The position numbers and the translations under genes were made by a program. Below are positions 40,285 through 51,647 of a stretch of DNA of 64,000 bases, piece after piece; position 1 is the first letter of the stretch, and the number at the start of each line of letters is the position of its first letter. Source of the DNA: an uncultured Nitrososphaerales archaeon (lineage in GTDB: Archaea; Thermoproteota; Nitrososphaeria; Nitrososphaerales; Nitrososphaeraceae). The notes below the pieces were generated by a model. It did no database searches and had not been told where the DNA came from. It worked only from the letters and a program-made list of their open reading frames with translations. The stretch covers positions 256,001-320,000 of the forward strand of contig CAVPXM010000055.1 of NCBI GenBank assembly GCA_963709405.1, in the 5' to 3' direction.

Positions 40285-40374
40285 GGGCTCGTAGCTCAGT
40301 ATGGATAGAGCGCCTGCCTTCTAAGTTTTATCGAAGAAAGCCGGAAGTCGTGGGATCGAAGCCCACCGGGCCCG
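40285..40374 (+). tRNA. tRNA-Arg(UCU) with 15-nt canonical 37/38 intron (40324-40338)
   Basis: Acceptor GGGCTCG/CGGGCCC, D and T arms, anticodon TCT 40320-40322, BHB central helix CTTC/GAAG; one U-C mismatch in anticodon stem; TTTAAA promoter ~40250. Confidence 0.93.
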
Positions 40375-49499: not shown

Positions 49500-51102
49500 A
49501 TGAATGACGACCGAATGTCTATGGCCGCTAAATGCTATGCGCAGTTGGAACAATCTGGTATCAAGGTAGGCAAAGTGCATCATAATCTGCCACCTGCATC
49601 ATTGATTGAGGTTGCCATTCGTAAGAGGGAGGGAATGCTATCTCTTACTGGAGCTCTGACAGTGAACACCGGAAAGTACACAGGCCGATCACCAGATGAT
49701 AGATTTATAGTAGACGATGAAATTACGCACAGCACCGTAGACTGGGGAAAAGTGAATCATCCTCTATCTCAAGAAAAATACAGTCTAATCTTCAACAGGT
49801 TAAGGGATCAGCTTGACCAGAAGGAATACTTTGTTTTTGATGGGTTTGTAGGAGCTGACAAAAAGGTAAGACTTCCAATAAGAGTGCTTACAGACAAAGC
49901 ATGGCAATGCCTGTTTGCAAACCAGATATTTCTTAGGCCTCATGCTATAGAGCTTCAGACATTCCAGCCTGAATTTAGTTTGATTTCCGTCAATGATTTC
50001 AAGGCCATTCCCGAGATAGATGGAACAAAGAGTGAGACATTTATAATAATAAATTTCTCCAAGAGAATGATAATTATTGGATCTACTTCCTACGCTGGCG
50101 AAATTAAGAAAGCAATGTTCTCAATTATGAGCTATCTTCTTCCACTTAGGGGTATTTTTCCTATGCACTGCTCTGCTAATATCGGGCCTGAAGGAGACAC
50201 TGCATTATTTTTTGGGCTATCTGGTACCGGAAAAACCACCCTTTCAGCTGACAGGGAACGGCATCTCGTCGGAGATGATGAACATGGATGGACTGAAGAT
50301 GGGATATTCAATTTTGAGGGTGGCTCGCTATGCTAAATGTATACATTTAAAAAAAGAACGCGAACCGCAGATATGGAATGCCATTAGGTTCGGAGCTGTG
50401 ATGGAAAATGTAGTTGTAAGCAAAAAGACAAGAGTACCTGACTTTGATGATGGGGCACTCACAGAAAACACTAGAGTCGTATATCCGCTTGAATTCATAC
50501 CCGGTTCTGTCATTCCAAGCTTGGCTACCCATCCTAAGGTGATAATCTTTTTAACTGCCGACGCATTCGGGGTGATGCCTCCAATTTCCAAACTAAGTCG
50601 AGAAGGTGGGATGTATCACTTCATGTCTGGTTATACAAGCAAACTAGCTGGGACAGAGAGAGGCATTACCGAGCCGCAGGAGACGTTTTCTCAATGTTTT
50701 GGAGCTCCATTCATGATGCTTCCGGCCAGTCGCTATGCTCAAATGCTAGGGGAAAAAATACTTGCCCATAATACTAAAGTATACTTGATAAATACTGGTT
50801 GGTATGGAGGGCCATACGGTGTCGGAAAAAGAATAAATCTTGATTATACAAGATCAATGGTAAGAGCCGTCATTAGAGGATTACTTGATAATCAGTCATA
50901 TGAACATCACCCTATTTTTAATCTGGATATTCCGACGGCTTGTCCAGATGTACCTCCTGAGATCTTAAATCCAGTTAATACTTGGCCTGACAAGGAGAAA
51001 TATAATACGGCTGCTCGCAGATTAGCTTCATTATTTGTCAAGAATTTTGAAAAGTTCAATGACATACCCCAAGAAGTAAGGGATGCAGGTCCGATTTTAT
51101 AA
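49500..51102 (+). CDS. pckA: Phosphoenolpyruvate carboxykinase (ATP); +1 frameshift near 50326
   Basis: [55 protein letters not shown]. Confidence 0.95.
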
Positions 51103-51107
51103 AGGAG

Positions 51108-51248
51108 TAGCCCGGAGCAGATTCGAACTGCTGTCTCCAGGTTTCTTTTCTCTTTAGAGATCCAGAGCCTGAAATCCCTAGCCCTACCATGGAGATTGGC
51201 CACTAGATTCGGCACCCGCTTGCTCTACTGTGCAGGTTCGACCGGGCT
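51108..51248 (-). tRNA. tRNA-Gln(CUG) with three introns (51238-51208 at 10/11; 51195-51178 at 21/22; 51161-51143 at 37/38)
   Basis: Removing 31+18+19 nt gives a 73-nt cloverleaf AGCCCGGTCGTCTAGTGGCCAAGGATTTCAGGCTCTGGACCTGGAGACAGCAGTTCGAATCTGCTCCGGGCTA; each junction forms a BHB-like motif. Confidence 0.9.
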
Positions 51249-51292
51249 TCTACCAAGCTACACCAAACTGAAAACACTACCAATATTTGACT

Positions 51293-51647
51293 TTAGCGTT
51301 TTGTATTAATTTCCCTTATAAGCAGGCCGTAACTCTAGGATCACCTTCTTCCGCATGTAAGGAATTAATCGATAATGAATTGAATATATATCATTTTCTC
51401 GGGTCAATATCCCTTTGACTAGTAATGACACAAATCCTCCTGCTACTCTCGATGGAGGCATCCGATGAATCTGACAAAATTCATCTCTTCTTGTGTGGTA
51501 TTCTTTTAACGTAAAATATGACCTGTTTAGGTCCAATATCAATGGCCAGACTACTTTTTCCCAAACCATTCGACGATTTTCGGTAGATGTGGCATGTTTC
51601 CCTTTACCTTTATTCCCATAGTGTGAGTCGAGATCCACATTTATCAT
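51293..51647 (-). CDS. Hypothetical protein (possible winged helix); +1 frameshift near 51331
   Basis: GFVSLLVKGILTREND.YSI wing-like motif; corrected end ..EYGLLIREINTKR*. Confidence 0.65.

Follow-up and report, generated by a model that had tools for sequence, protein, structure and literature searches.

A tRNA-Gln(CUG) gene with three predicted introns, one of them at position 10/11, in an ammonia-oxidising archaeon of the Nitrososphaerales

The window, i.e., the whole 64,000-nucleotide stretch of DNA analysed here, carries on its minus strand a 141-nt sequence that can be read as a tRNA-Gln(CUG) gene divided into four exons and three introns (Table 1). When the exons were joined by their coordinates in a script, ARAGORN recognised the product as tRNA-Gln(ctg), 73 nt in length. 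Its acceptor stem is a perfect 7 bp, the D stem has 4 bp and the anticodon stem 5 bp, the variable loop has 4 nt, and the T arm is standard. The universal nucleotides U8, A14, G18, G19, U33, G53, T54, T55, C56 and C61 are all found in the joined product, as read from the ARAGORN output; no CCA is encoded. The tRNA-Gln(UUG) paralogue agrees with this product in the acceptor, D-arm and T-arm. In one related genome (G028) the joined CUG product equals, by eye, an uninterrupted UUG gene (61.2 bits with the Rfam model) outside the anticodon stem-loop region. An earlier, sequence-only reading of this DNA had proposed that excising 31, 18 and 19 nt leaves a clean 73-nt tRNA-Gln(CUG). That is what ARAGORN returns from the joined exons of the minus strand and what 30 of 30 orthologues agree with, and the intron sites named in that reading, namely 10/11, 21/22 and 37/38, are supported by the comparative data. 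The host genome yielded no second tRNA-Gln(CUG); because that genome is 91% complete (90.99%), this falls short of proof that the gene is single-copy.

Two motifs lie upstream of the gene. The distal one, AAAGTCAAATAT, is a putative BRE/TATA-like promoter element, and the proximal one, GTAGCT, may mark the transcription start or the leader region. The downstream flank is T-rich and is a candidate terminator. A 102-codon open frame at 50907-51215 (-) spans both the tRNA gene and the end of the convergent PEP carboxykinase frame; it is almost certainly not a gene, and automatic annotation could call it a hypothetical protein.

Table 1. Coordinates of the tRNA-Gln(CUG) gene, its parts and its flanking features, and of the tRNA-Gln(UUG) gene of the same genome. 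Positions are those of the window unless a contig is named; a slash within a bulge marks the predicted cut.
Feature	Coordinates	Strand	Remarks
tRNA-Gln(CUG), complete (141 nt; four exons, three introns)	51108..51248	-	73-nt mature product in 30/30 orthologues
Exon 1, 10 nt; tRNA positions 1-10: acceptor 5' strand, U8, C9, G10	51239..51248 (pre-tRNA 1-10)	-	Family mean pairwise identity 0.991
Intron 1, 31 nt, at 10/11	51208..51238 (pre-tRNA 11-41)	-	Exactly absent in 7/30 orthologues
Exon 2, 12 nt; positions 11-21: D-stem 5' strand and D-loop	51196..51207 (pre-tRNA 42-53)	-	Identity 0.953
Intron 2, 18 nt, at 21/22	51178..51195 (pre-tRNA 54-71)	-	Helix H with 4/4 pairs in 30/30 orthologues
Exon 3, 16 nt; positions 22-37: D-stem 3' strand, anticodon stem 5' strand, anticodon CUG, G37	51162..51177 (pre-tRNA 72-87)	-	Identity 0.989
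Intron 3, 19 nt, at the canonical 37/38	51143..51161 (pre-tRNA 88-106)	-	BHB elements and covariation
Exon 4, 35 nt; positions 38-73: anticodon stem 3' strand, 4-nt variable loop, T arm, acceptor 3' strand, discriminator A	51108..51142 (pre-tRNA 107-141)	-	Identity 0.995
Upstream motif AAAGTCAAATAT	51283..51294 (-46 to -35 from tRNA 5' end)	-	Nearly invariant across family genera; surroundings vary
Upstream motif GTAGCT	51256..51261 (-13 to -8)	-	Conserved across family genera; surroundings vary
Convergent ORF, C-terminal part of ATP-dependent PEP carboxykinase	50212..51102	+	PF01293, 337 bits; stop 6 nt from tRNA 3' end
tRNA-Gln(UUG), 93 nt, one 20-nt intron at 10/11	Host genome (G000) contig C47:91758-91850 (L033/L034), outside the window	-	GCCG strand and AA/U bulge as in the CUG gene

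All three introns share one pairing geometry, that of the archaeal bulge-helix-bulge (BHB) motif. Four bases of the exon, the last of them two bases short of the 5' site, are paired with four bases of the intron that end at the same distance from the 3' site. From this geometry it follows that each cut would fall after the second base of a 3-nt bulge. In intron 1 the resulting helix, H, is formed by CGGU (tRNA positions 5-8) with GCCG, and is flanked by the bulges CG/A and AA/U. The inner helix, h', is ACCUGC/GCGGGU; it has 6 bp in the host genome and 3-9 bp across sequences, with compensatory changes in all of its first five pairs. The outer exon-exon helix, h, was absent in all 23 intron-1 sequences examined, and H was fully paired (4/4) in 22 of these 23 CUG sequences. 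Intron 1 is thus of the relaxed form, i.e., with h' and no h. The elements named in the sequence-only reading (CGGT/GCCG, CG/A, AA/T and ACCTGC/GCGGGT) are all present, but the last of them, taken there for an outer helix, is the intron-internal h'.

The helix H of intron 1, hereafter H1, was kept in the same 22 of 23 CUG sequences and in 23 of 25 UUG sequences, where it shows pair-preserving substitutions only, plus one double change. Opposite U8 stands G or A, and opposite G6 and G7 stands C or U, mostly with pairing preserved; three mismatches were seen opposite C5 among 48 sequences. In G038, exon G6 is replaced by C, and both partner strands have changed accordingly, namely the intron strand of H, which is GCGG instead of GCCG, and the 3' acceptor strand.

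The H of intron 2 is GGCC with GGCU, with the bulges AA/U and AG/G, just as first read. Its inner helix is weak (1-4 bp in most sequences) and its outer helix is not contiguous; in the fold of the whole precursor, the pairs of H have probabilities of 0.77-0.78. Intron 3 is of the full BHB form: the anticodon stem serves as its outer helix, and its inner helix is UCUC/GAGA (4 bp). Its H pairs CUCU with AAAG and contains one mismatch, C34-A, which recurs in 25 of 30 sequences; the remaining five, which come from five less closely related families of the order, have GGGG and 4/4 pairs. Helix 6 of the set, which belongs to intron 3, was 79.2% paired. Introns 1 and 2 are relaxed motifs, and intron 3 is the full canonical form on the anticodon stem. 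With their respective weak points, namely the missing h, the weak h' and the C-A mismatch, all three would rely on a broad-specificity enzyme.

Two EndA paralogues, 202 and 206 aa long and both containing PF02778 and PF01974, are encoded in the genome, and this pair fits a two-subunit enzyme. Such a two-subunit EndA is described for the Thaumarchaeota, where it is linked to relaxed motifs, in the available parts of PMC4090602 and PMC5829648. RtcB is present as well (PF01139, 564.3 and 513 bits). A match to archaeal AmoA (392.7 bits) identifies the host as an ammonia-oxidising archaeon, which had been a guess until then.

A DNA search of 41 related genomes, the host included, found the CUG locus in readable form in 30; weaker matches in eight further genomes were left out, and in G004, G006 and G011 no CUG orthologue was seen in this search. 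All 30 orthologues parse to the same four exons and a 73-nt product, with the anticodon CUG in every case. Among the 22 sequences of the family, the mean pairwise identity of exons 1 to 4 is 99.1, 95.3, 98.9 and 99.5%, respectively. The mature tRNA occurs there in 5 distinct versions, as opposed to 22, 19 and 22 for introns 1, 2 and 3, and the intron lengths are 0-37, 16-26 and 14-26 nt. In the 30-sequence alignment the proposed pairs are standard in 96.1% of cells, versus 31-48% after the partners have been shifted by one to three columns. Compensatory double changes were found at ten pairs; shuffling gave 4.4 +/- 1.3, and the observed value was not attained in any of 500 shuffles. The one-contig genomes G007, G088 and G105 also carry this locus. 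Introns 2 and 3 occur in all 30 CUG orthologues, and are therefore at least as old as the order.

Intron 1 has a different history. In the seven orthologues that lack it, G10 runs straight into U11, and these natural intron-1-less genes fix the intron 1 junction at 10/11. The corresponding two-intron pattern was found in 15 of 21 genomes of a single genus, g14, versus none of 129 in the other 17 genera; in the host genome itself it had no match. In that genus (e.g., locus L019 of G019) the loss is precise, other members retain the intron, and the UUG gene retains its own 10/11 intron. Intron 2 has a variant position in one orthologue, L025 of G027, where it stands at 24/25 instead of 21/22, i.e., three bases further on. 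The shifted intron has a perfect 4-bp helix of its own, CAAG/CUUG, and has retained the GGGCTAG string typical of intron 2, which suggests intron sliding.

The 10/11 site is also occupied in the tRNA-Gln(UUG) gene of the host. Thirty UUG orthologues were fetched and 29 were parsed, G038 being the one that could not be. An intron of 17-32 nt at 10/11 is present in 25 of the 29, including all 23 family orthologues fetched; G019, whose CUG gene has none, carries it too. The other four UUG orthologues are uninterrupted, at 73 nt, and score 59.6-62.2 bits as full-length tRNAs with the Rfam model. In G092, of family f9, the 15-nt 10/11 introns of the CUG and UUG genes are identical at 11 of 15 positions by eye, which hints at a possible exchange between the two paralogues.

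Pattern searches extended the survey to 401 genomes of the order. A Gln gene of either kind with a 12-42-nt insert at 10/11 was found in 162 of them: in 107 of 111 genomes of the family, and in at least one genome in 14 of 19 further families. The strict three-intron CUG pattern was found in 67 of the 401, several of which consist of one contig. Within the family it occurs in 65 of 111 genomes and in all 14 genera sampled; in a second family it occurs in 1 of 9 genomes, and in the other 18 families of the order it had no matches. The reversed-pattern control gave no match in the 401 genomes for either pattern. These counts include genomes flagged as unpublished, namely G272 (both patterns) and G283 (10/11-insert pattern). 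In other orders of the phylum, a looser 10/11 pattern matched 9 of 257 genomes, 8 of the 9 with a GCCGA-type end, against a nonzero background of 3 genomes matched by its reversed-pattern control. The three-intron layout is the norm for the whole family, not a rarity. The initial doubt that 10/11 is a common site does not hold, in that the site is family-wide, is shared by both Gln genes, and extends beyond the order. From the sequences compared, 10/11 appears to be a deeply conserved, glutamine-specific intron site common to both isoacceptors.

The interrupted genes are poorly served by standard scanners. ARAGORN reported no genes in the untouched window, and its intron mode also found nothing at the locus; Rfam gave no match there at its gathering threshold, and with the cutoff relaxed to E up to 10 its one match was tmRNA-like, scored 12.8 bits and covered the T-arm and acceptor end. 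The warning that scanners could miss this gene is thus confirmed by direct scans with ARAGORN and the Rfam tRNA model. With introns 1 and 2 removed, ARAGORN in intron mode set intron 3 two bases off, giving a 19-nt intron and a 73-nt Pyl(cta). The UUG gene of the host is labelled tRNA-His(gtg) with a long extra arm by ARAGORN, and has a partial 34.8-bit match only with Rfam. That is, the two tools miss or mislabel both Gln genes of this genome, the reading of Gln(UUG) as His having been seen in this genome only. Since the layout is family-wide, annotations built on ARAGORN or Rfam could show a false Gln gap and a false extra His tRNA.

Other tRNA genes gave related observations. The default ARAGORN scan of the window also misses a tRNA at 40285-40374 (+), which scores 44.4 bits with Rfam; in intron mode it comes out as tRNA-Arg(tct), with an intron of 15 nt in the anticodon loop. 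Ten or more other tRNA-like genes of the host genome, 94-146 nt in length, are mislabelled or given odd introns by ARAGORN, e.g., those at C63:93134-93256, C55:124902-125007, C55:81696-81803, C21:112710-112828 and C47:84932-85077. These long genes probably carry non-canonical introns, some near positions 8-13. On contigs C31, C69 and C55, intron mode also produced obvious false positives (Pyl, Stop and Gln) with 'introns' of 840-1900 nt. A brute-force excision guided by BHB motifs and followed by ARAGORN was applied to 20 long tRNA candidates, and many mutually exclusive solutions were accepted. As an intron census this approach was dropped, because it left too many alternatives to assign introns without comparative data. 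Because so many of its solutions were spurious, a scanner call obtained after chosen deletions is, taken by itself, weak evidence.

Six RNA-library runs contain part of the stretch, and four of them (X15-X18), all in the form of assembled contigs, were examined. Their contigs cover the locus unspliced, with no joints; such contigs cannot show absence, strand or level, and they speak neither for splicing nor against it. In one X15 contig, exon 2 is joined directly to exon 1, introns 2 and 3 are kept, and the upstream flank is different. Given that flank and the two remaining introns, this contig derives from a relative without intron 1, and not from spliced RNA.

Three other explanations of the locus have to be weighed. 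The least probable, to the point of being negligible, is that the cloverleaf is a chance product of deleting three chosen segments from 141 nt. Brute-force excision does readily yield spurious ARAGORN calls in other genes; here, however, the exact exon set is common to orthologues in 30 genomes, the reversed-pattern controls gave 0 matches versus 67 real ones in 401 genomes, and the covariation statistics (96.1% paired, 0 of 500 shuffles) point the same way; together these results refute it. The locus could also be a decaying tRNA pseudogene with insertions, the functional tRNA-Gln(CUG) being hidden in the 9% of the genome that is missing from the assembly, or tRNA-Gln(UUG) reading CAG. The genome completeness of 90.99% leaves room for this, the standard models fail to recognise the gene, and no splicing was seen at the RNA level, where assembled contigs were the only material. 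A pseudogene would nevertheless not be expected to keep its exons near-invariant across at least 14 genera while its introns diverge freely yet keep their pairing by compensation. Nor does decay fit with the same locus in three one-contig genomes, the conserved promoter-like motifs upstream, or a joined product in which every universal tRNA nucleotide is intact. We consider this explanation very improbable.

Equally improbable, in our judgement, is that the gene is real but is to be parsed differently, i.e., with intron 3 two bases upstream (anticodon CUA), with intron 1 cut in the minimum-energy conformer, or with one insert retained. The intron-3 variant is what ARAGORN proposes in intron mode, as the 73-nt Pyl(cta) with a 19-nt intron. 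It offers no 4-bp helix flanked by bulges, and in a hand parse it leads to different anticodons in the orthologues of distant families, as opposed to CUG in 30 of 30. This placement was rejected, there being no BHB motif for it and no single anticodon across the order. A cut in the minimum-energy conformer would draw on the full-length fold, in which positions 8-10 pair with intron positions 38-40 and H1 is not formed. That pairing is broken in G038 and in UUG genes with A or G at position 9, whereas H1 is kept in 22 of 23 CUG and 23 of 25 UUG sequences, and the natural intron-1-less genes fix the junction at 10/11. We conclude that 51248-51108 (-) is very probably a functional tRNA-Gln(CUG) gene, and apparently the only one, with three introns excised by EndA and with exons joined by RtcB into a 73-nt tRNA. 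Cleavage and ligation of the precursor are here predicted from the gene sequence.

According to the proposed route, the gene would be transcribed as a precursor of 141 nt plus its ends. EndA would excise the three introns at the BHB-type motifs at 10/11, 21/22 and 37/38, and RtcB would join the four exons into the 73-nt tRNA. Intron 1 would be cut before the 3' acceptor strand exists, or else EndA would capture a minor conformer; in either case the acceptor stem would form afterwards.

The folding of the precursor was assessed by thermodynamic prediction at 37 C, with the leader, the trailer and any proteins left out. At full length the precursor has a predicted energy of -51.8 kcal/mol (z = -2.17), in a cloverleaf-like fold that keeps the whole 7-bp acceptor stem and pairs U8-C9-G10 with the intron 1 CGA (positions 38-40). 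H1 has a probability of 0.00 in this fold, and enforcing it costs 6.4 kcal/mol (-45.4 versus -51.8). In nascent 5' fragments of 41, 45, 87, 106, 120 and 133 nt, H1 is the minimum-energy pairing; its pairs have probabilities of 0.85-0.96 in the 41-45-nt fragments and about 0.3-0.7 in the longer ones of this set. A rival pairing beats it at 53 and 71 nt, and H1 is gone once the last eight bases, i.e., the 3' acceptor strand, are added. The competition between intron 1 and the acceptor stem, which had been suspected from the sequence, is thus real in silico. Because H borrows acceptor positions 5-8, the intron 1 motif would be favoured only as long as the 3' acceptor strand is still lacking, or as a minor conformer. 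From these predictions we tentatively propose, at somewhat below an even chance, that intron 1 is recognised while the transcript is still growing, or else through a minor conformer captured by EndA. The ordered splicing once thought possible does not follow as an obligation: each motif has a segment of its own, with no overlap, so that all three can be present together and no fixed order is required.

A more far-reaching idea is that the 10/11 intron is an ancient glutamine-specific intron kept in both isoacceptors for a function, namely as a checkpoint on end-processing, CCA addition and charging. Pairing with positions 5-8 would then hold the precursor in a shape unlike that of a tRNA until excision, which would probably be co-transcriptional. 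Archaeal tRNA-Gln is first charged with glutamate, so that premature use of the tRNA would be costly. We regard such a function as unlikely; if it were real, the precise loss in one genus would mark a lineage with relaxed control.

Multi-intron tRNA genes with relaxed motifs are textbook knowledge for the Thermoproteales. Up to three introns per tRNA gene, strict or relaxed BHB motifs and a two-subunit EndA are described there, in the available parts of PMC4090602 and PMC4033280. As far as these partial texts go, the Gln(CUG) gene resembles the Thermoproteales genes in having three introns, one at 37/38 and two non-canonical, with strict or relaxed motifs. The Thermoproteales hosts are hyperthermophiles, in contrast to the mesophilic soil ammonia oxidiser studied here; that is, the genes are of the same kind, in a different clade. 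The gene also differs from them in having an intron at 10/11 whose central helix is built on the acceptor 5' strand, at a site that both Gln isoacceptors share and that is conserved order-wide. The view that multi-intron tRNA genes are known mainly from the Thermoproteales holds in that this order is well known for them, but such genes are already documented for the Thaumarchaeota in the accessible portion of the tRNAscan-SE 2.0 report (PMC8450103). It describes multi-intron, non-canonical tRNA genes in this group, a dedicated BHB model trained for them, and 107 non-canonical introns, i.e., the same phenomenon as in the Gln(CUG) gene, in the same lineage. Its supplement includes tRNA genes of 137-163 nt in Nitrososphaera. 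Its file of differences between program versions has long Nitrososphaera Tyr, Trp, Leu, Asn and Glu genes and, among the rows listed, no Gln; the Gln genes were therefore either found by both versions or missed by both (PMC8450103). In Asgard archaea, too, tRNA genes have several introns, with D-arm inserts overlooked by annotators (bioRxiv 10.64898/2026.10.13.758758, available in part). That study concerns a different phylum, and its available text has 0 occurrences of words beginning with Nitrososphaer or Thaumarchae. No text describing these Gln genes or a 10/11 site was found in searches, for which positions written with a slash are not usable as terms.

The Gln(CUG) gene leaves the picture of archaeal tRNA splicing unchanged, as a well-supported and fairly ordinary example of it. 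Within that picture, intron 1 clearly exemplifies a splicing motif in competition with the acceptor stem of its own tRNA. The locus as a whole is a natural series for the retention, movement and loss of archaeal tRNA introns, consisting of three-intron forms, two-intron forms that arose by precise loss in one genus, a three-base shift in one genome, and the same site in two paralogues.
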